Positions 4,171 through 58,883 of a stretch of DNA of 64,000 bases are shown here, piece after piece (the first letter of the stretch is position 1; every line of letters begins with the position of its first letter). A program made the translations under genes and the position numbers. A model generated the notes under the pieces. It did not search any database. It saw nothing but the letters and a program-made list of their open reading frames with translations, and had not been told where the DNA came from. The DNA is from Candidatus Uhrbacteria bacterium (GTDB taxonomy: Bacteria; Patescibacteriota; Patescibacteriia; JACQRZ01): contig JACQSC010000004.1 in assembly GCA_016206155.1 (NCBI GenBank), positions 7,450 to 71,449 of the forward strand, in the 5' to 3' direction.

Positions 4171-4177
4171 AATGGCA

Positions 4178-4210
4178 GGGTACAGGGTTTAGGGTACAGG
4201 GTTTAGGGTT
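4178..4210. repeat. heptanucleotide tandem repeat GGGTACA/GGGTTTA (about 4.7 units); opposite strand CCCTAAA encodes the C-terminus and TAA stop of the 4189..5613 gene
   Basis: Direct reading: gggtacagggtttagggtacagggtttagggtt. Confidence 0.85.
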
Positions 4211-9876: not shown

Positions 9877-10434
9877 ATGTACCTCTTCATTCATGCAGCA
9901 GAACGAGAGTATGCGTATCTCCTGCTCGTTGGCAAAAGCATGCCCCGCACCACGATGCGGGGTAAGGAATTGTTAGAATTCCTTACTTTTGGTGACCTCG
10001 TTGTTTATACAAAGTACCTTGTGTATCGGGGAAAGAAATCCCCCGATGTGTTGCGCGGCATCGATGATCTACTGAATCAATTTGGTCTCGCAGCAAAAAG
10101 TCTGAAGGGCATCTGCGTGCTTTCCGGTCCGGGGCAATTTTCGTTTTTGCGAACATCGGTGGTAACTGCCAACACTTTTGGGTGGGCGTTGAACATTCCG
10201 GTTGTTGGTATTTGCGACAAGAAAATGGTGTCTGGTTCCAAGAAAATGGTGTCAGGTACAATTTCCGAAGAAATTGAACCAGACACCATTTTCTCAGACA
10301 CCATTTTCTCGCATAACACCATTTTGTTCATCACGCGCGGTCTCAAAAAGCTCTCGCGCACAAAACGTTTTCGTCCGGTTGTCCCGGAGTACGGCAGAGA
10401 GCCCAACATCACGACGCCGAAGAAAAGAATATAA
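9877..10434 (+). CDS. tsaB: TsaB (YeaZ)-like N-terminal domain protein carrying an in-frame palindromic repeat insertion
   Basis: LSGPGQFSFLRTSVVTANTFGWALNIPVVGI matches the TsaB GPGSFTGLRIG...A..LP..G motif; the C-terminal part is atypical. Confidence 0.5.
   Translation: MYLFIHAAEREYAYLLLVGKSMPRTTMRGKELLEFLTFGDLVVYTKYLVYRGKKSPDVLRGIDDLLNQFGLAAKSLKGICVLSGPGQFSFLRTSVVTANTFGWALNIPVVGICDKKMVSGSKKMVSGTISEEIEPDTIFSDTIFSHNTILFITRGLKKLSRTKRFRPVVPEYGREPNITTPKKRI
10221..10325. repeat. 105-bp nested palindromic element: 2x GAAAATGGTGTC(A/T)GG, central palindrome, then 2.5x inverted copies
   Basis: Direct reading; the same 15-nt termini recur at 14769..14822. Confidence 0.85.
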
Positions 10435-12408: not shown

Positions 12409-12937
12409 TGTTTTTATAGCACATTCTCATGTTATGCACAGTTGCGTGGTTGAAGGGGGTATGTTTGTGGTGTATAATAGGCATTACATGGTGAAATGTG
12501 GGGAAAAGTGGTGGATAAGTAGGGGACAAATGTGGACAAATAAATGGTTCACAACCCGAAATGCTTATAACTGTAAGCAATAAGTCAAAATGACAAAGCC
12601 CAAATACCAAATCAAATCAAAAGTTCAAATACTAACAAATGGCCCTGTATTTTTGCCATTAGGATTTTTTCATTAGGATTTTTCAAACTATGCTTGTCGT
12701 GTCTTATTTACTAGCAAACAGGAAGTTTTTATACGGGTATCTGCGAAGCGCCATTGCCACCGCGCATCCCCATGCCGCGCGGTGGCGAAGGCCGAAAATC
12801 TAATGGTTTCATTGTTAAATTGCAGAAAAGTTTTATTCCCATAGAGGTTTCTCTAACACGTTTGGACACAGATTAAAGAGATTAAAACAACAATGTGCGG
12901 TAGCAATGTAACAATTTGACAATAGAGCAATGCAACT

Positions 12938-13370: not shown

Positions 13371-13449
13371 TACATTGTTACATTGTTACATTGCTGGCGT
13401 TTAACAATGTAACATAAGTGAGCGAAGCGAGCGATAACAATGTAACAGT
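13371..13449. repeat. cluster of ACAATGTAAC / GTTACATTGT motifs between mraZ and rsmH (tacattgt x3 tandem, then 2 inverted copies)
   Basis: Direct reading; another copy at 12903..12915 upstream of mraZ. Confidence 0.8.
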
Positions 13450-13469: not shown

Positions 13470-14366
13470 ATGATGATACAGCATAAAACGGTTTTACGAG
13501 AGGAGGCGATTCGTTACTTAGGTGTTCTTTCAAATCATCATTACGTTGACTGCACATTGGGCGGCGGCGGCCACACAGAAGCCATACTGGATCGTAACGG
13601 GACAAAAGGACGCGTCATAGCGTTTGAGCTTGATGCTGATACGATTGTACGGACGAAGAGGCGTCTCAAGCGTTTTGGCGCACGATTGATTGTTGTTGAG
13701 GATAATTTTAGAAGTATTGGGAGAGTAACAGAATATGGTATGCCGATCTCCGGAATACTCTACGACCTTGGTACGTCGATGGACCTTTTGAAAAGCAGCG
13801 GTCGCGGATTTTCCTTCCTTGTCGATGAACCGCTTGATATGCGATTCTCTCTTTCAACAGAGAGAACAGCCGCAGATCTTATCAGAACAACACGGGAATC
13901 TGAGCTTGCCGATCTCATTTTTCGATACGGAGAGGAGCGATTGAGCCGCCGCATCGCCCATGCAATAATGCAGACACGTACGCACACTTCTATCACGACC
14001 ACGCGCGAGCTTGTTTCGGTCATTGAGCGGGCGGTGCCGCCATCATATTGTCGAGGTCGTATCCATCCAGCAACACGAACCTTTCAGGCGTTGCGCATCG
14101 CAGTCAATGATGAATTGGAGTGCCTTTCAGAGTCCCTTGAGCAGGCAATGGCGCTTATTGAAAGGGGTGGACGCATCGTCGTCATTTCGTTCCACTCGCT
14201 TGAAGATAGGATTGTGAAACAGTTCTTTCGAATACAAAAATTAAAAAAAACAGGCATCATTTTAACGAAAAAGCCGATTACTCCTTCGCGCGAAGAGATT
14301 GAGAAAAATCCAAACTGCCGCAGTGCAAAACTTCGCGCGCTGGAAATACTAACCCCTAGACCCTAA
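13470..14366 (+). CDS. rsmH: 16S rRNA (cytosine1402-N4)-methyltransferase RsmH
   Basis: DCTLGGGGH SAM-binding motif, mraW family layout, dcw position. Confidence 0.95.
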   Translation: MMIQHKTVLREEAIRYLGVLSNHHYVDCTLGGGGHTEAILDRNGTKGRVIAFELDADTIVRTKRRLKRFGARLIVVEDNFRSIGRVTEYGMPISGILYDLGTSMDLLKSSGRGFSFLVDEPLDMRFSLSTERTAADLIRTTRESELADLIFRYGEERLSRRIAHAIMQTRTHTSITTTRELVSVIERAVPPSYCRGRIHPATRTFQALRIAVNDELECLSESLEQAMALIERGGRIVVISFHSLEDRIVKQFFRIQKLKKTGIILTKKPITPSREEIEKNPNCRSAKLRALEILTPRP

Positions 14367-14385
14367 ACCCTAAACCCTAAACCCT
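14353..14385. repeat. CCCTAGA/CCCTAAA heptamer tandem repeat (4.5 units) overlapping the rsmH stop codon
   Basis: cccctagaccctaaaccctaaaccctaaaccc; rsmH ends ...LTPRP* with its TAA inside the repeat. Confidence 0.85.
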
Positions 14386-14913: not shown

Positions 14914-16857
14914 GTGGATTTTGATACAATAGATACTATGATGACATTTCGTTCACGTACGAAACGAAGATCTGTGCGCGCTCATCAATTGGGCGGTTTC
15001 CATGCAATCCAGTCGCTTAAAGCTCTTGTTCGCATTGACCGCATCAGCTTCCTGAGGGGGTGCTTGTTTTTCTTCGTGCTCATATTGTTCCTGCGCCTCT
15101 TTAACCTCCAAGTTTTAAGTTACGAGGACTATCGGACGGCAGCGGAGGGCGAACATCAATTATTGAGAAAAATTCATCCCGACAGAGGAAGTATCTTCCT
15201 GCGAGAACGTTCTGCCAACGGGAGCGCAAACCAGTATCTGATGGAAGTTGAGGGGGAAAAGCTTTTTCCCGCGGTAACGAATCGTGAGTATATGCTCGTC
15301 TATGCGGTGCCAAAATCAATCAGTGACCCAGAAAAGGTCGCCGATCAACTTATGCCGCTCTTTGACATTCCAAAAGAGGAGCCAAAGAGCGATGATGACA
15401 ACAACGGTGACAAGGATGGCATTGATCCGCGCGAAGAGCGGCGTGCGTGGCTCGTTCAAAGACTGTCAAAGAAGAACGATTCGTACGAAGTGATCAAGAG
15501 GAAGGTGCCGGCGGCAAGCTGGGATATAATCAAAAAGCTGTACATTGGCGGAATCAACGCAAGCCCGGAAAGCTATCGGTTTTATCCCGAAAAGGGATTG
15601 GGCGGGCATCTTTTTGGGTTCGTGGGGTATAGCGGCGAGAGCGTCAAGGGGCTGTATGGGCTCGAGGGTTATTTTGACGATATTCTGAAAGGTAAGGAAG
15701 GATCTTTGCGATTCGAGTCAGATGCCCTTGGCGCGCTGATTCCCATCGGGGAAAAGCGCGTTGTTGAGGCGGTTCAGGGAAGCAACCTTGTATTAACGAT
15801 TGACCGAACAATTCAGCTCATGGCGTGCGATCGCCTTTCAAAATGGGTTCTCAAACACGGCGCCGATGGAGGGACCGTTGTTATTATGAATCCCAATACC
15901 GGAGCCCTCTATGCCATGTGCAGCGTACCCGACTTTGATCCTGAAAACTATTTTGATGCAGATGTGAAGCAGTATCCGAATCCCTCAATTTTTACTCCCT
16001 ATGAACCTGGTTCAATATTTAAGCCGTTTACCATGGCAATGGGCATTGACAGTGAAAAGGTTGCCCCGGCAACGACCTATGTTGATACCGGCGAGGTAAA
16101 AATTGGATCGTTCACCATCAAAAATTCTGACAGCAAAGCGCACGGCAAACAAACCATGATGGATGTTCTCGATCAATCACTCAATACGGGCGTGATCTTC
16201 GTCGCGCGCAAAGTCGGTATCGACGCGTTTCGTGATTACGTAAAGAATTTTGGTTTTGGGAAGCCGACAGGCATAGAGCTTGACCGGGAAGTATCCGGTA
16301 CGATCGCGGGACTGAACGAGAAGCAGGAGATTTATATGGCAACCGCATCATTCGGTCAGGGTTTGAGCGTAACGCCGCTCCAAATTACCACTGCCTACGC
16401 CGCTCTTGCCAACGGGGGCAATCTTGTGCAACCCTATGTTGTAGATGAGATTATCAAGTCTGACGGCAGCCGCCATCGCACCAATCCAAAAGTAGTCCGA
16501 CGGGTCATATCGGAAAAAACTTCAACACTCATCAGCAGTATGTTGGTGAACGTTGTGCGCAAAGGACACGGGAAGCGCGCTGGTGTTGACGGCTATTACG
16601 TCGCGGGCAAAACCGGCACCGCGCAAGTTGCACGCAGTGACGGCAGGGGGTATGAGCGCGACATCACAATCGGCTCATTTGCGGGTTTTGCGCCCGTTGA
16701 TAACCCTCGGTTTGTCATGCTTGTCAAAGTAGACCATCCACGGGATGTTCAGTGGGCGGAAAGTTCCGCGGCGCCACTTTTTGGCGAATTGGCAAAATTT
16801 TTATTACAGTATTTTGAGGTGCCGCCTGATGAAACAGAATCAAGAAGCAAGAATTAA
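14914..16857 (+). CDS. ftsI: peptidoglycan D,D-transpeptidase FtsI / PBP2-type penicillin-binding protein
   Basis: SIFK (SxxK), KTGTA motif, PBP dimerisation domain; acidic low-complexity insertion. Confidence 0.9.
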   Translation: MDFDTIDTMMTFRSRTKRRSVRAHQLGGFHAIQSLKALVRIDRISFLRGCLFFFVLILFLRLFNLQVLSYEDYRTAAEGEHQLLRKIHPDRGSIFLRERSANGSANQYLMEVEGEKLFPAVTNREYMLVYAVPKSISDPEKVADQLMPLFDIPKEEPKSDDDNNGDKDGIDPREERRAWLVQRLSKKNDSYEVIKRKVPAASWDIIKKLYIGGINASPESYRFYPEKGLGGHLFGFVGYSGESVKGLYGLEGYFDDILKGKEGSLRFESDALGALIPIGEKRVVEAVQGSNLVLTIDRTIQLMACDRLSKWVLKHGADGGTVVIMNPNTGALYAMCSVPDFDPENYFDADVKQYPNPSIFTPYEPGSIFKPFTMAMGIDSEKVAPATTYVDTGEVKIGSFTIKNSDSKAHGKQTMMDVLDQSLNTGVIFVARKVGIDAFRDYVKNFGFGKPTGIELDREVSGTIAGLNEKQEIYMATASFGQGLSVTPLQITTAYAALANGGNLVQPYVVDEIIKSDGSRHRTNPKVVRRVISEKTSTLISSMLVNVVRKGHGKRAGVDGYYVAGKTGTAQVARSDGRGYERDITIGSFAGFAPVDNPRFVMLVKVDHPRDVQWAESSAAPLFGELAKFLLQYFEVPPDETESRSKN

Positions 16858-16916
16858 GAATTATGCGTGGACGTCACACCCTTGACTCTTAATTCGTAAT
16901 TCGCAATTCTTCAAGG
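16843..16916. repeat. AAGAATT-type repeat plus imperfect inverted copy (hairpin) spanning the ftsI stop
   Basis: aagaagcaagaattaagaatt ... aattcgtaattcgcaattctt. Confidence 0.7.
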
Positions 16917-19489: not shown

Positions 19490-19564
19490 CTATGACAAAA
19501 ACCCCTGTCACCTATAAAGAAACATTGCAGGGTATTCTTACGGTGCGAGAGATTGAGAGTATTG

Positions 19565-20008
19565 TCATTGCCGCACGCCCTGTTGTACCACTGCGCCAGA
19601 TGAATGGATATATTTTTTACTCGCGATATAAAACGCAATAACTGCCAAAACAAAACTAGCGTGTTCCACGGTGAATTCTGATCCGGCGATCATTTGAAAA
19701 ATACGATACCCCCCTCCAACCACTACAAGGTAAAGCGTCGCAAGTTTTGCGACCTCGCCACTATCTGTGATGATATATTTTTTATTCACATAGCGAGCGG
19801 AATACATCGCTCCGAGCCAATACACCAGGGGCATAAGAAGTAAATAGACAAAAGCGAGTAAGTCAACACCACGTTCAATGTTTTCGCCAAAACCTAATCT
19901 CAAGACTGCAACCATAATAAAATAGAGGATGAATGACGGGACGACACCGCCTGTCAACCAATGAGTAGCGGCGACATACCAACGCGCGGATTGTTTTTCT
20001 TCGCTCAT
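19565..20008 (-). CDS. hypothetical integral membrane protein (4 predicted TM helices)
   Basis: Hydrophobic segments in the translation. Confidence 0.5.
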   Translation of the reverse strand: MSEEKQSARWYVAATHWLTGGVVPSFILYFIMVAVLRLGFGENIERGVDLLAFVYLLLMPLVYWLGAMYSARYVNKKYIITDSGEVAKLATLYLVVVGGGYRIFQMIAGSEFTVEHASFVLAVIAFYIASKKYIHSSGAVVQQGVRQ

Positions 20009-37579: not shown

Positions 37580-38033
37580 TATGCTGTATATTGCCTCTGA
37601 TCATGCAGGATTTGCATTAAAGGAATACCTCAAACGATTTTTGAAAAAACACTCAATTGCCGTTGAGGATATTGGCGCACATAGATACGATAAGGCGGAT
37701 GATTTTCCTCGCTATGCGTTTTCCCTTTCAAAAAAAGTCGCCTCGGATTCCTCACATCGCGGAATTCTTCTTTGTGGAAGCGGGCAAGGCATGTGCATTG
37801 CGGCAAACAAAGTAAGGGGCATACGCGCAGCATCTGTGTGGAACAAAAAAAGCGCTATTGCTTCGCGACACGACGATGACACAAACATTCTTTGCCTTTC
37901 CGGCCGCATGCTCACGAGAAAAGAGACTGAAGAAATTCTTTCATCGTGGCTCTTTACCGGATTCTCCGGTTTGGCACGCTATAAGCGCCGGCTAAACCAA
38001 ATTGCCGCCTACGAAAAAAACTCCCGCGCATAA
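37572..38033 (+). CDS. rpiB: ribose-5-phosphate isomerase B
   Basis: MLYIASDHAGF...LLCGSGQGMCIAANK RpiB/LacAB motifs; the likely start is ATG 37581. Confidence 0.9.
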   Translation: MRGMLYIASDHAGFALKEYLKRFLKKHSIAVEDIGAHRYDKADDFPRYAFSLSKKVASDSSHRGILLCGSGQGMCIAANKVRGIRAASVWNKKSAIASRHDDDTNILCLSGRMLTRKETEEILSSWLFTGFSGLARYKRRLNQIAAYEKNSRA

Positions 38034-38051
38034 CGGGAGTTTTTTCTTTTG

Positions 38052-38234: not shown

Positions 38235-38343
38235 ATACCCATTATTTATTATTTAATACCTATTAGTATAGCACATTTAAAAAAATTAACTCCCTTGCTA
38301 TACTATACTAAACCCTAGACCCTAGCCACTAGACCCTATTTTT

Positions 38344-52045: not shown

Positions 52046-52165
52046 AAAGAATGAAGAATCAAGAATTAAGAATTAAGAATTAAGAATTAAGAATTAAGAA
52101 TTAAGAATTAAGAGGACCCATGATATGCCTTGCTTCGTAATTCTTACTTCTTAATTCTTCATGAT
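52046..52165. repeat. (AAGAATT)x7 tandem repeat followed by an inverted partial copy (hairpin-forming), between ftsH and pilB
   Basis: Direct reading. Confidence 0.9.
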
Positions 52166-54031: not shown

Positions 54032-54059
54032 GAAAGTTTCAGATTTACGATTTATGATT

Positions 54060-55289
54060 TCAAATTTCCTGGTCGTTTGCCGCCGTTGGTTGTTCGGGAG
54101 CCGGCTCAGCAGTTTCCGTGGGAGTTTTTTCTTCCACTGATTCCTGCGTGTCCGCCGTGGCGGGATTACTGATTCCTGATTCCTCTTTAAACGCTTTGAG
54201 GCTCAATCCAAGACGATGTTCCTCCGGCTCAATGGACACGATACGAAATTCGACCATGTCGCCCTGTGACGCAATGGTTGTGGGATCAACATTCGTTTTC
54301 GTTGAAAGTTCTGACACGTGCGCAAGCCCGTGAATTTCCGGATCCAGCTCGACAAACAAACCGAATGGATTAACTTTTAATACCTTGCCTTTTACGAGCT
54401 GACCGACAGCATAGCGATCCTTCACGTTCTTCCAGGGATCGGGAATAAGATTTTTCATCGAAAGAAATATCTTTGACCCCTCTATTTTAATAATTTGTGC
54501 CTTGATCTTCTGTCCCGAGCGCAGAAACTCTTTTGGATCATCGATGCGTTGCCACGCAATCTCGGAAATATGGACAAGCCCTTCAAGGCCTTGACCGAAC
54601 TCAACAAAGGCGCCGAAATCTGTGATAACAGTTACAACCCCTTCAATATTATCGCTCACCTTGTAGCTAGAGATAACATCTTTCTGGCGCACTTCCCATG
54701 CCGCCTTTTCCGAGACGATGAGCTTCTCTTCTTGCTCATCTGCGTCGATAATTTTTACTTCAAAACTTTCGCCCGTATAAGACTTCAATTTTTCGAGAAT
54801 CTTATTTTTGTCACCACCCTGAATACGCGGATAATGTTCGGGACAGAGTTGAGAAACCGGCATAAAACCGCTTACATTTCCGCACACGACCATGAGGCCA
54901 CCCTTGTTTGCGTCGACGGACTTCACAGTGACAATCTCACCCGATTGGCACAGTTGCCGCAGATGATCCCAGGCCTTTTTATGCCCGGCGCTTCGAAATG
55001 AAAGCTCAAAAAGCCCTCGCTCGTTCTCAAGCTCCAGAACCGTTGCGCTGACTTCATCGCCGAGTTTGAGATTGGAATATTCACCGGATTCATCGACCAG
55101 CTCCATTCCCCGAACAACGCCGGTCGCGACACCGTTGATATCAATCTGCACATCTCCTTTGGAAACTGATAATACCGTTCCGGTAATAATATCGCCGACT
55201 TTCGGAAGCGCGGCGCTGTACTGATCAAGAAGCTCTCTGAACTCTTTTTTACTCTGTTCGTCAGCAAGCTGTTGTGTTGTCGTAGTCAT
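54060..55289 (-). CDS. rpsA: 30S ribosomal protein S1 (four S1 domains)
   Basis: Repeated S1 OB-fold motifs; acidic C-terminus. Confidence 0.9.
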   Translation of the reverse strand: MTTTTQQLADEQSKKEFRELLDQYSAALPKVGDIITGTVLSVSKGDVQIDINGVATGVVRGMELVDESGEYSNLKLGDEVSATVLELENERGLFELSFRSAGHKKAWDHLRQLCQSGEIVTVKSVDANKGGLMVVCGNVSGFMPVSQLCPEHYPRIQGGDKNKILEKLKSYTGESFEVKIIDADEQEEKLIVSEKAAWEVRQKDVISSYKVSDNIEGVVTVITDFGAFVEFGQGLEGLVHISEIAWQRIDDPKEFLRSGQKIKAQIIKIEGSKIFLSMKNLIPDPWKNVKDRYAVGQLVKGKVLKVNPFGLFVELDPEIHGLAHVSELSTKTNVDPTTIASQGDMVEFRIVSIEPEEHRLGLSLKAFKEESGISNPATADTQESVEEKTPTETAEPAPEQPTAANDQEI

Positions 55290-57487: not shown

Positions 57488-57496
57488 ACAAGAAAA

Positions 57497-57530
57497 GGGG
57501 TTAGGGGTTAGGGGTTAGGGGTTAGGGGTT
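57497..57530. repeat. (GGGGTTA)x5 tandem repeat; the opposite strand supplies the last codons (TPNP) and TAA stop of nusA
   Basis: Direct reading. Confidence 0.9.
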
Positions 57531-58764: not shown

Positions 58765-58772
58765 ACTAAATA

Positions 58773-58806
58773 GGGTTTAGGGTAGAGGGTTTAGGGTAGA
58801 GGGTAT
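58773..58806. repeat. GGGTTTA/GGGTAGA heptamer tandem repeat (about 4.7 units) between the CAP-domain gene and nusA
   Basis: Direct reading. Confidence 0.85.
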
Positions 58807-58883
58807 AGTAAAAAAGGATAGTGTAACCACTATCCTAATGTTTCATATACTACTACAAGCACCCTGTTTAGTCAAGGGGACGC

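Follow-up and report, generated by a model that had tools for sequence, protein, structure and literature searches.

The sequence examined is a 64-kb window (the term denotes the whole stretch of DNA that was analyzed) from a groundwater Candidatus Uhrbacteria, a bacterium of the Patescibacteria, also known as the candidate phyla radiation (CPR), with a small genome and a GC content of roughly 48%. Fragments of four relatives were included. The window contains five tandem arrays of a heptanucleotide, designated A to E, with CCCTAAA-like units in the mRNA sense (Table 1). All five sit between co-directional genes. Tandem Repeats Finder (TRF) detected a period of 7 or 14 at every one of these loci, which confirms the four loci and the weaker fifth one listed in a preliminary description of the window; array E is degenerate (79% matches). 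The C3/C4 tracts of arrays A to D are spaced at 7 nt. The C-rich strand is the mRNA sense strand and the G-rich strand the template of both flanking genes at five of five loci, as had been described before, and the earlier observation that three genes (the 474-aa open reading frame (ORF), rsmH, and nusA) take their TAA stop codon from the repeat was also borne out. The identities of the flanking genes encoding RsmH and NusA were confirmed. The window RsmH is identical to the NCBI protein MBI4252958.1 (Candidatus Uhrbacteria bacterium), and the relatives of both proteins were Patescibacteria in every case. A cyanobacterial origin, initially considered because the heptamers resemble those of cyanobacteria, was rejected on this basis. 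Genome and metagenome scans revealed no relative with more than 74% identity in NusA. In an Rfam scan of the window, the gathering score was reached by three tRNAs only.

Table 1. Heptanucleotide arrays of the window, the elements next to them, and further arrays (TRF, Tandem Repeats Finder; PBP, penicillin-binding protein)
Feature	Position	Strand	Sequence or structure	Gene context
Array A	4177–4210 (TRF 4176–4210)	−	sense (CCCTAAA/CCCTGTA)x2 + CCCT, five C tracts	upstream, 474-aa ORF (...NPVP-stop, TAA 4189–4191); downstream, LigB-family gene, ATG 4170
Array B	14349–14385	+	CCCTAGA + CCCTAAA x3 + CCCT, five C tracts	upstream, RsmH (...LTPRP-stop, TAA, ends 14366); downstream, ftsL, GTG 14391
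Array C	57496–57530	−	sense (CCCCTAA)x4 + CCCCT, perfect repeat; TRF, AGGGGTT x5	upstream, NusA (...LTPNP-stop, TAA 57508–57510); downstream, membrane pyrophosphatase gene, ATG 57487
Array D	58770–58808	−	sense (CCCTCTA/CCCTAAA)x2 + CCCT	nusA 5′ leader, between leader hairpin and ATG 58764
Array E	38308–38338	+	degenerate, CCCTAGA CCCTAGC CACTAGA CCCT, three intact C tracts	rpe 5′ leader, ATG 38344
nusA leader upstream of array D	58815–58875	−	promoter-like TTGACT-17-TAGTAT (58875–58847), then hairpin GGATAGTG/CACTATCC + T6 run (58836–58810)	
Promoter-like site at rpe	38276–38304	+	TTTAAA-17-TG-n-TATACT	ends 3 nt before array E
Terminator-like hairpin	38015–38045	+		gene upstream of rpe; array E lies beyond the hairpin and the promoter-like site
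AATTCTT family at pilB	52047–52159	−	purine-rich AAGAATT-like arm 52159–52129, loop, (AATTCTT)x9.6 at 52113–52047	12 nt before pilB ATG 52034
AAGAATT/AATTCTT inverted pair	16836–16915	+	pyrimidine arm ends about 8 nt before ATG 16920	PBP to Mur-ligase junction
AAATCNN family	54032–54059	−	three units	occupy the whole 28-nt junction of S1-domain gene and ftsH
14-nt-period (2x7) array	12649–12684	+	ATTTTTCCATTAGG x2.5	ends 5 nt before ATG of conserved 37-aa ORF 12690–12803

The sequence CCCTAAACCCTAAA was found 13 times in the window when up to two mismatches were allowed, whereas 0.28 matches were expected, and none of 100 shuffled sequences reached this number. Single CCCTNNA words were as frequent as expected (77 versus 75). 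When such words were chained, three chains of exactly five tracts and one degenerate two-tract chain (38313–38322) were obtained, and chains of three or four tracts were absent; array C adds five C4 tracts to this count. Among the periods from 4 to 12, near-perfect arrays of at least three units occur in the window with period 7 only. Each window array contains stop codons in two or three reading frames. Terminal inverted repeats and flanking duplications are missing, and a mobile element or a miniature inverted-repeat transposable element was therefore rejected.

The arrays are also present in Logan assemblies from independent sequencing runs. Base-for-base copies of array B were identified in four runs and of arrays C and D in two runs, and array D was read through in three more. 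The Logan contigs are 99.9–100% identical to the window, including the arrays; therefore, the arrays are not assembly artefacts, a possibility raised in the preliminary description. Because the flanks are 99.9–100% identical as well, a comparison of array copy numbers in these contigs has little power on mutability. Some of the contigs terminate inside arrays C and D.

Eight further arrays in the relatives (the L083/L170 organism, L167, L172, and L004; the L designations denote related loci) complete a set of 13 arrays from five genomes and seven distinct gene junctions. The L083/L170 organism, whose NusA and RsmH are 72% and 67% identical to those of the window, contributes five CCCTNNA arrays. 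One lies in the nusA leader, two are found at the nusA-pyrophosphatase and rsmH-ftsL junctions, and two precede mraZ and a conserved small ORF, respectively; the small ORF takes its stop codon from the CCCTNNA array that follows. The rsmH-ftsL array is also found in L167 (80% RsmH identity) and L172 (76%), and L004 (67% NusA identity) has an array in the nusA leader. CCCT is unchanged in all 40 units of the 13 arrays, whereas positions 5–7 of the unit vary. The number of tracts ranges from 3 to 5 and is 4–5 in 12 of the 13 arrays (five in each of the window arrays A to D; 4, 4, 4, 4, 4, 4, 5, and 3 in the relatives, the last value belonging to the rsmH-ftsL array of L172; three intact tracts in the degenerate array E). 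Not more than two G residues are present in any of them (0–2 per array).

Other relatives, which are equally close, differ at the same sites. L003 shows an AAGGA motif before nusA and three copies of CTAATTC after it, L085 has an AT-rich CATTTnn unit instead of the CCCT unit, and L168 has no array at the same junction. At orthologous sites, the unit has been replaced rather than lost. The protein ends vary as well: RsmH of the relatives ends either naturally (...EIL-stop or ...ELI-stop) or with an array-encoded terminus (ILNPKP-stop, ILNPEP-stop, ILTPNP-stop), and NusA of L083, with its longer acidic tail, is terminated upstream of the array. The array-encoded C-termini of RsmH and NusA are therefore lineage-specific additions; the arrays have expanded into tails that are dispensable. 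RsmH proteins of other Uhrbacteria (P0007, P0008, P0010, P0011, P0015) share a non-homologous C-terminal tail, CQSVS(G/E)K, for which a further short repeat at the rsmH-ftsL junction may code.

The distance between the last CCCT and the start codon of the downstream gene is 5–9 nt in 13 of 13 arrays, and the C-rich strand is the sense strand in all of them. In the window, the values for arrays A to E are 6 (LigB-family gene), 5 (ftsL), 8 (pyrophosphatase gene), 7 (nusA), and 6 nt (rpe), respectively. The start codons next to the arrays are considered to be real because they are aligned with the starts of the orthologues; the GTG of ftsL, for example, is aligned with the ATG of its orthologues. 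The upstream stop codon is 75 nt away from array D and about 275 nt away from array E. The arrays are therefore anchored to the downstream start codon and not to gene 3′ ends, to which they had been assigned in the preliminary description. Promoters are predicted upstream of arrays D and E, which are thus part of the nusA and rpe 5′ leaders. Arrays A to C are intercistronic and located within operons. Neither a hairpin nor a T-run was found within the arrays (terminator scan; folding at about 0 kcal/mol without quadruplexes), and for this reason they are not intrinsic terminators, as had been considered earlier. Terminator-like hairpins adjoin arrays D and E and lie outside the arrays. In the nusA leader, the promoter-like site and the hairpin with the T-run are kept in all close relatives, with or without an array (window 58810–58880, minus strand; L083 9890–9960; L085 9895–9950; L003 9890–9950; L004 9925–9960). 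The hairpin looks like a candidate attenuator by which NusA could regulate its own operon.

A Shine–Dalgarno 4-mer precedes 12 out of 67 window genes, compared with 13% of random 17-mers. The window thus shows no Shine–Dalgarno enrichment, and no such motif was found beside any window array. Many start codons of the window have a T-rich context at positions −5 to −1, often (T/G)TGT-ATG. Several promoter-like −10 boxes lie about 10–40 nt from a start codon, which suggests short leaders. The gene string of nusA, the pyrophosphatase gene, ftsH, and pilB also encodes, at 54060–55289 (minus strand), a protein of 409 aa that carries several S1 RNA-binding domains and is similar to ribosomal protein S1. 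This protein is a candidate for reading G-poor leaders. Pairing of ACCCU with an altered anti-Shine–Dalgarno sequence is unlikely: the 3′ end of the 16S rRNA in L031, the only one in the related loci and outside the CCCT lineage, is canonical (GGATCACCTCCTTT). In the same locus (993–1095), an array of TTTTCAA heptamers begins in the rRNA spacer within about 20 nt of the 16S 3′ end.

The CCCT arrays are not the only heptamer repeats of the window. The preliminary description overlooked further arrays belonging to the AAGAATT/AATTCTT and AAATCNN families and one array with a 14-nt period (Table 1). These unrelated units occupy the place ahead of start codons that is held elsewhere by the CCCT arrays, and strong lag-7 periodicity at positions −45 to −1 was observed for 8 of 66 window genes. 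The AAGAATT/AATTCTT pairs follow the order purine-rich arm, loop, pyrimidine-rich arm in the mRNA; the two arms, being inverted, can pair into a hairpin. The pairs may act as processing or stability hairpins. The PBP stop codon TAA (16855–16857) lies inside such a repeat. At the place orthologous to the array with the 14-nt period, L170 carries a CCCT array.

The phylum-wide sample comprised 126 non-redundant Patescibacteria loci (1.79 Mb), in which genes were called by the longest-ORF rule. Stringent arrays with a period of 7 (35 arrays) outnumbered those with periods of 5, 6, 8, and 9 (8, 8, 3, and 2). The array units are genome-specific across Patescibacteria, and several arrays form inverted pairs. 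Arrays of the CCCTAAA type were also detected in the relative L066, which was assembled as a complete chromosome of 1.19 Mb (OY970181.1). There, directly after a stop codon (19526–19640), 5.4 copies of TAGGGTA are followed after 8 nt by 9.7 units of the CCCTAAA type, forming a long hairpin with a perfect stem. As this hairpin demonstrates, the G-rich orientation is found in the mRNA sense where it is paired with its complement.

Similar repeats are known from other bacteria. Rehm et al. (2015; PMC4692102) described heptamers in Xanthomonas (GGGAATC) and in Nostoc PCC 7120 (GGGGA(C/T)T, of the cyanobacterial short tandemly repeated repetitive sequence (STRR) type), which lie between aligned ORFs, prefer four units, fold into quadruplexes in vitro, and lack an assigned function. 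They are mostly located 0–50 bp ahead of an ORF, the G-rich strand being the non-coding one, or overlap a stop codon, and related species carry them at the same junctions, varying in length and sequence. The Uhrbacteria arrays share with them the tandem 7-nt units with one G3–4 tract each, the dispersed loci between co-directional ORFs, the preference for about four units, the placement before ORFs with the G-rich strand as template, the overlap with stop codons, the recurrence with variation at orthologous junctions, and the lack of a tie to surface genes or mobile elements. Differences concern the units, since GGGTTTA, GGGTACA, GGGTAGA, GGGTCTA, and GGGGTTA match neither GGGNATC nor GGGGA(C/T)T, and the hosts, which are a proteobacterium and a cyanobacterium with large genomes there and a small-genome CPR bacterium here. 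The arrays described here are also more uniform, with the C-rich strand in the mRNA in 13 of 13 cases and a tighter distance to the start codon (5–9 nt), and their quadruplexes are predicted in silico.

A second group comprises the TAACTGA heptamers found a few nucleotides before start codons in marine Beggiatoaceae, some cyanobacteria, and Bacteroidetes, in spacers without a Shine–Dalgarno sequence, for which a translational role via S1, Csp, or CsrA has been proposed (MacGregor, 2015; PMC4679880). Common to both are heptamers in one orientation (two to six in Beggiatoaceae) that end at the position of the ribosome-binding site, the little use of Shine–Dalgarno sequences, the stop codons in the unit, and the placement before essential genes and within operons. 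TAACTGA is a different unit without a G tract or quadruplex potential, and the Beggiatoa genome has one dominant unit, whereas at least three unit families coexist in the Uhrbacteria window. Unlike the TAACTGA repeats, the Uhrbacteria arrays also supply the stop codon of the upstream gene. According to the survey of Mrazek et al. (2007), as far as it is reported in PMC4679880 and PMC4692102, heptanucleotides are the most over-represented prokaryotic repeats among those with units of 5–11 nt, which was explained by polymerase slippage. That survey predates CPR genomes and, in the parts reported, linked long-unit repeats to large, high-GC genomes of non-pathogens; the period-7 excess in Patescibacteria agrees with it, whereas the small genomes of moderate to low GC content do not.

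On these grounds, the arrays belong to a known kind of heptamer repeat, as they show the positional and structural features described by Rehm et al. (2015) and MacGregor (2015); the unit sequence and the phylum are new. The earlier statement that such arrays are unusual in bacterial chromosomes does not hold, given the over-representation of heptamers among long prokaryotic simple-sequence repeats and the similar arrays in Xanthomonas and Nostoc. A report of such arrays in Patescibacteria or CPR was not found in the literature searched. The likeness to the plant telomere (TTTAGGG)n, noted in the preliminary description, is correct for the unit (CCCTAAA/TTTAGGG is identical, hence the same G-quadruplex motif) and otherwise coincidental: the arrays measure 31–39 nt and lie within operons between housekeeping genes and not at replicon ends, the units are mixed (CCCTGTA, CCCTCTA, CCCTAGA, CCCCTAA), and nothing points to telomerase.

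The explanation we prefer, with about even confidence for and against, is that the arrays are heptanucleotide simple-sequence repeats of the Xanthomonas, Nostoc, and Beggiatoaceae kind, born by slippage and serving as G-free, unstructured spacers before start codons. They would arise and be homogenized by replication slippage, which in prokaryotes favors 7-nt units, and would persist only as G-free (CCCUNNN)3–5 transcribed spacers directly before start codons. There, judging from position and predicted structure, an array may provide an unstructured landing region for the ribosome of the downstream cistron. Because a 7-nt unit with UAA or UAG cycles through the three frames, the array terminates any incoming upstream frame; this frame would end, always as Pro-stop, about 20–30 nt before the next start codon, which might favor translational coupling. 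The use of the repeat's stop codon by three genes is explained by expansion of the array into non-conserved C-terminal tails in a tight operon and is not the purpose of the array. The quadruplex potential of the template strand is a consequence of the unit sequence, whether or not the cell makes use of it.

Several points weigh against this explanation. The array-bearing initiation regions are predicted to be less structured than others (mean unpaired probability 0.71 versus 0.47; 90-nt folding energy −6.9 versus −16.3 kcal/mol, p = 3e-4), but this is not independent evidence because it follows automatically from the lack of G, and the translational role is deduced only from position and predicted structure. 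An unstructured spacer leaves both the invariant CCCT and the 4–5 tracts in 12 of 13 arrays unexplained. The spacers of the Uhrbacteria window are very short, so that some nearness to start codons is unavoidable. In the phylum-wide sample, the next start codon is no more than 13 nt away in 28 of 72 arrays (7.8 expected), but the longest-ORF gene calls push the start codons toward the arrays, and the previous stop codon is equally close in 19 of 72 (7.8 expected as well). The strand bias in this sample is inconsistent, with more C than G in 43 arrays and more G than C in 37; a universal strand rule was not found in Patescibacteria.

Among the other explanations, an effect on the DNA level is unlikely. 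The template strand (GGGTNNA)4–5 might fold into a G-quadruplex, or the opposite strand into an i-motif, when the duplex opens, and modulate transcription by pausing, as a roadblock, or by keeping leader DNA open, a role of the kind suggested for the heptamers of Xanthomonas and Nostoc. The previous claim of at least four G3/G4 runs per array is valid for arrays A to D, which have exactly five and G4Hunter scores of 1.4–2.56, and fails for the weak array E with three. Quadruplex-aware folding yielded −8 to −32 kcal/mol, compared with about 0 without quadruplexes. A need for four tracts would fit the absence of three- or four-tract chains from the window, the 4–5 tracts in 12 of 13 arrays from the five genomes, the invariance of the G tract, and the same preference for about four units in the related heptamers, for which quadruplexes were shown by circular dichroism (Rehm et al., 2015; PMC4692102). 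It does not fit the three tracts of array E and of the rsmH-ftsL array in L172, nor the AT-rich heptamer arrays without quadruplex potential that hold the same positions in the window and in the phylum. Furthermore, the invariant core CCCT/AGGG exceeds what a quadruplex needs by one base, and the intercistronic arrays A to C are tied to start codons, not to promoters.

The invariance of CCCT in 40 of 40 units with variable positions 5–7 would be accommodated if tandem ACCCU motifs at 7-nt spacing are bound by one RNA-binding protein, for example of the KH or S1 type, that jointly controls the translation of nusA, the pyrophosphatase gene, the division and cell wall (dcw) genes, and rpe. The placement of the final motif 5–9 nt before the start codon resembles that of a Shine–Dalgarno sequence, the same unit family recurs at several unlinked junctions in genomes whose RsmH or NusA is 67–80% identical, genes for an S1-domain protein and for NusA with its two KH domains adjoin the arrays, and binding of S1, Csp, or CsrA was suggested for the TAACTGA repeats (MacGregor, 2015; PMC4679880). 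Nevertheless, we consider such a regulon improbable, since the close relatives L003, L085, and L168 either lack the arrays at the same junctions or carry other units there, without obvious compensation, the other unit families of the same genome would each require a reader of their own, slippage-driven concerted evolution could also yield an invariant CCCT, and the binding protein is hypothetical. In its widest form, the idea would make (CCCUNNN)4–5 arrays 5–9 nt before the start codon a sequence-specific, Shine–Dalgarno-independent signal for ribosome recruitment or translational control, read by a ribosome-associated protein of the KH or S1 type and uniting nusA, the membrane pyrophosphatase gene, the dcw operon (small ORF, mraZ, ftsL), and rpe in a post-transcriptional regulon, with 7-nt-periodic arrays before start codons as a general intercistronic design of Patescibacteria; this, too, we regard as a speculative proposal that is probably wrong. 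Somewhat less probable still is that the arrays are neutral by-products of slippage, with orientation and position reflecting where they are tolerated, that is, outside coding sequences and not G-rich in the mRNA beside a start codon. The fast gain, loss, and unit turnover among close relatives, the inconsistent strand rule in the phylum, the general preference of prokaryotic slippage for 7 nt, and the lack of a common functional theme among the neighboring genes are what would be expected in this case. The retention of the same core at the same junctions in organisms whose proteins are only 67–80% identical, the narrow ranges of 3–5 tracts and 5–9 nt to the start codon, and the strong enrichment of arrays at spacer ends are not.

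The two remaining explanations were given little credence. A 3′-end element of the upstream gene (terminator, RNA-stability element, or Rho-loading site resembling a Rho utilization (rut) site), as initially suggested, could account for the three arrays overlapping an upstream stop codon, for the C-rich, G-poor transcript strand, and for the phylum-wide enrichment beside stop codons, and inverted-pair arrays elsewhere could make 3′ hairpins. It is very unlikely for the arrays in question, because D and E belong to the 5′ leader of the gene that follows, with a terminator-like hairpin and a promoter on their upstream side, solitary CCCT arrays have neither self-complementarity nor a T-run, and termination within operons (dcw; nusA to the pyrophosphatase gene) at arrays A to C would be harmful. 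With respect to rut sites, the C-rich composition with few G residues would fit, but 31–39 nt is short compared with about 60–80 nt. A tblastn search of the window and of 2.2 Mb of related loci with approximate queries detected neither Rho nor CspA genes; the sequences searched cover small parts of the genomes and cannot show absence. That the arrays are phase-variable contingency loci, in which a change in copy number switches the downstream gene, is scarcely credible. In Haemophilus and Moraxella, tandem repeats located between a promoter and the start codon have this effect, and the tract numbers (3–5) differ between related species. The neighbors, however, are housekeeping genes (nusA, rsmH/ftsL, rpe, pyrophosphatase gene), a 7-nt step in an untranslated spacer leaves reading frames unshifted, and independent sample assemblies (four for array B, two for C, and three for D) showed no differences in these arrays, a comparison of little power given the near-identical flanks.

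Some further elements were noticed around mraZ and elsewhere in the window. At the head of the mraZ-rsmH-ftsL cluster, direct GTGG(G/T) boxes with a 10-bp period (window 12448–12530, TRF 12489–12526; L170 140–260) are conserved downstream of a promoter-like site, TTGAAG...TATAAT. They resemble an MraZ operator and are regarded as a putative one. The heptamers themselves are a feature distinct from these MraZ-type boxes, which have a 10-bp period and a GTGG core. The conserved small ORF (12690–12803, plus strand, 37 aa, MLVVSYLLANRKFLYGYLRSAIATAHPHAARWRRPKI; L170 379–498, 39 aa) is located upstream of mraZ in a long leader. The GC-rich sequences GCCACCGCG...CGCGGTGGC in this region form a perfect inverted repeat, and the region could alternatively be a conserved RNA element. 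Directly after mraZ (13371–13393), 2.9 copies of TACATTGT were found, and ACAATGT-like words in the opposite orientation lie directly before the gene (12880–12930); the repeats on either side of mraZ may be a long-range inverted pair. At 10218–10325, inside or beside the ORF 9877–10434, a 21-nt repeat (CAAGAAAATGGTGTCAGGTTC x1.9) precedes 15-nt repeats (CAGACACCATTTTCT x2.1–2.7) containing its reverse complement.

Knowledge of heptamer arrays beside genes dates back to 1990 (cyanobacterial STRRs) and became more detailed in 2015, and their function was never established. The Uhrbacteria case adds CPR/Patescibacteria to the phyla with such arrays. It also has consequences for the annotation and finishing of CPR genomes, as the arrays append short, lineage-specific Pro-stop tails to conserved proteins and some short-read contigs break inside them. 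The comparative picture is clean, with an invariant CCCT, 3–5 units, 5–9 nt to the start codon, one orientation, and no Shine–Dalgarno enrichment, and a translational hypothesis is therefore directly testable with simple reporters. If a translational role were true, the arrays would inform how ribosomes find start codons in reduced genomes.

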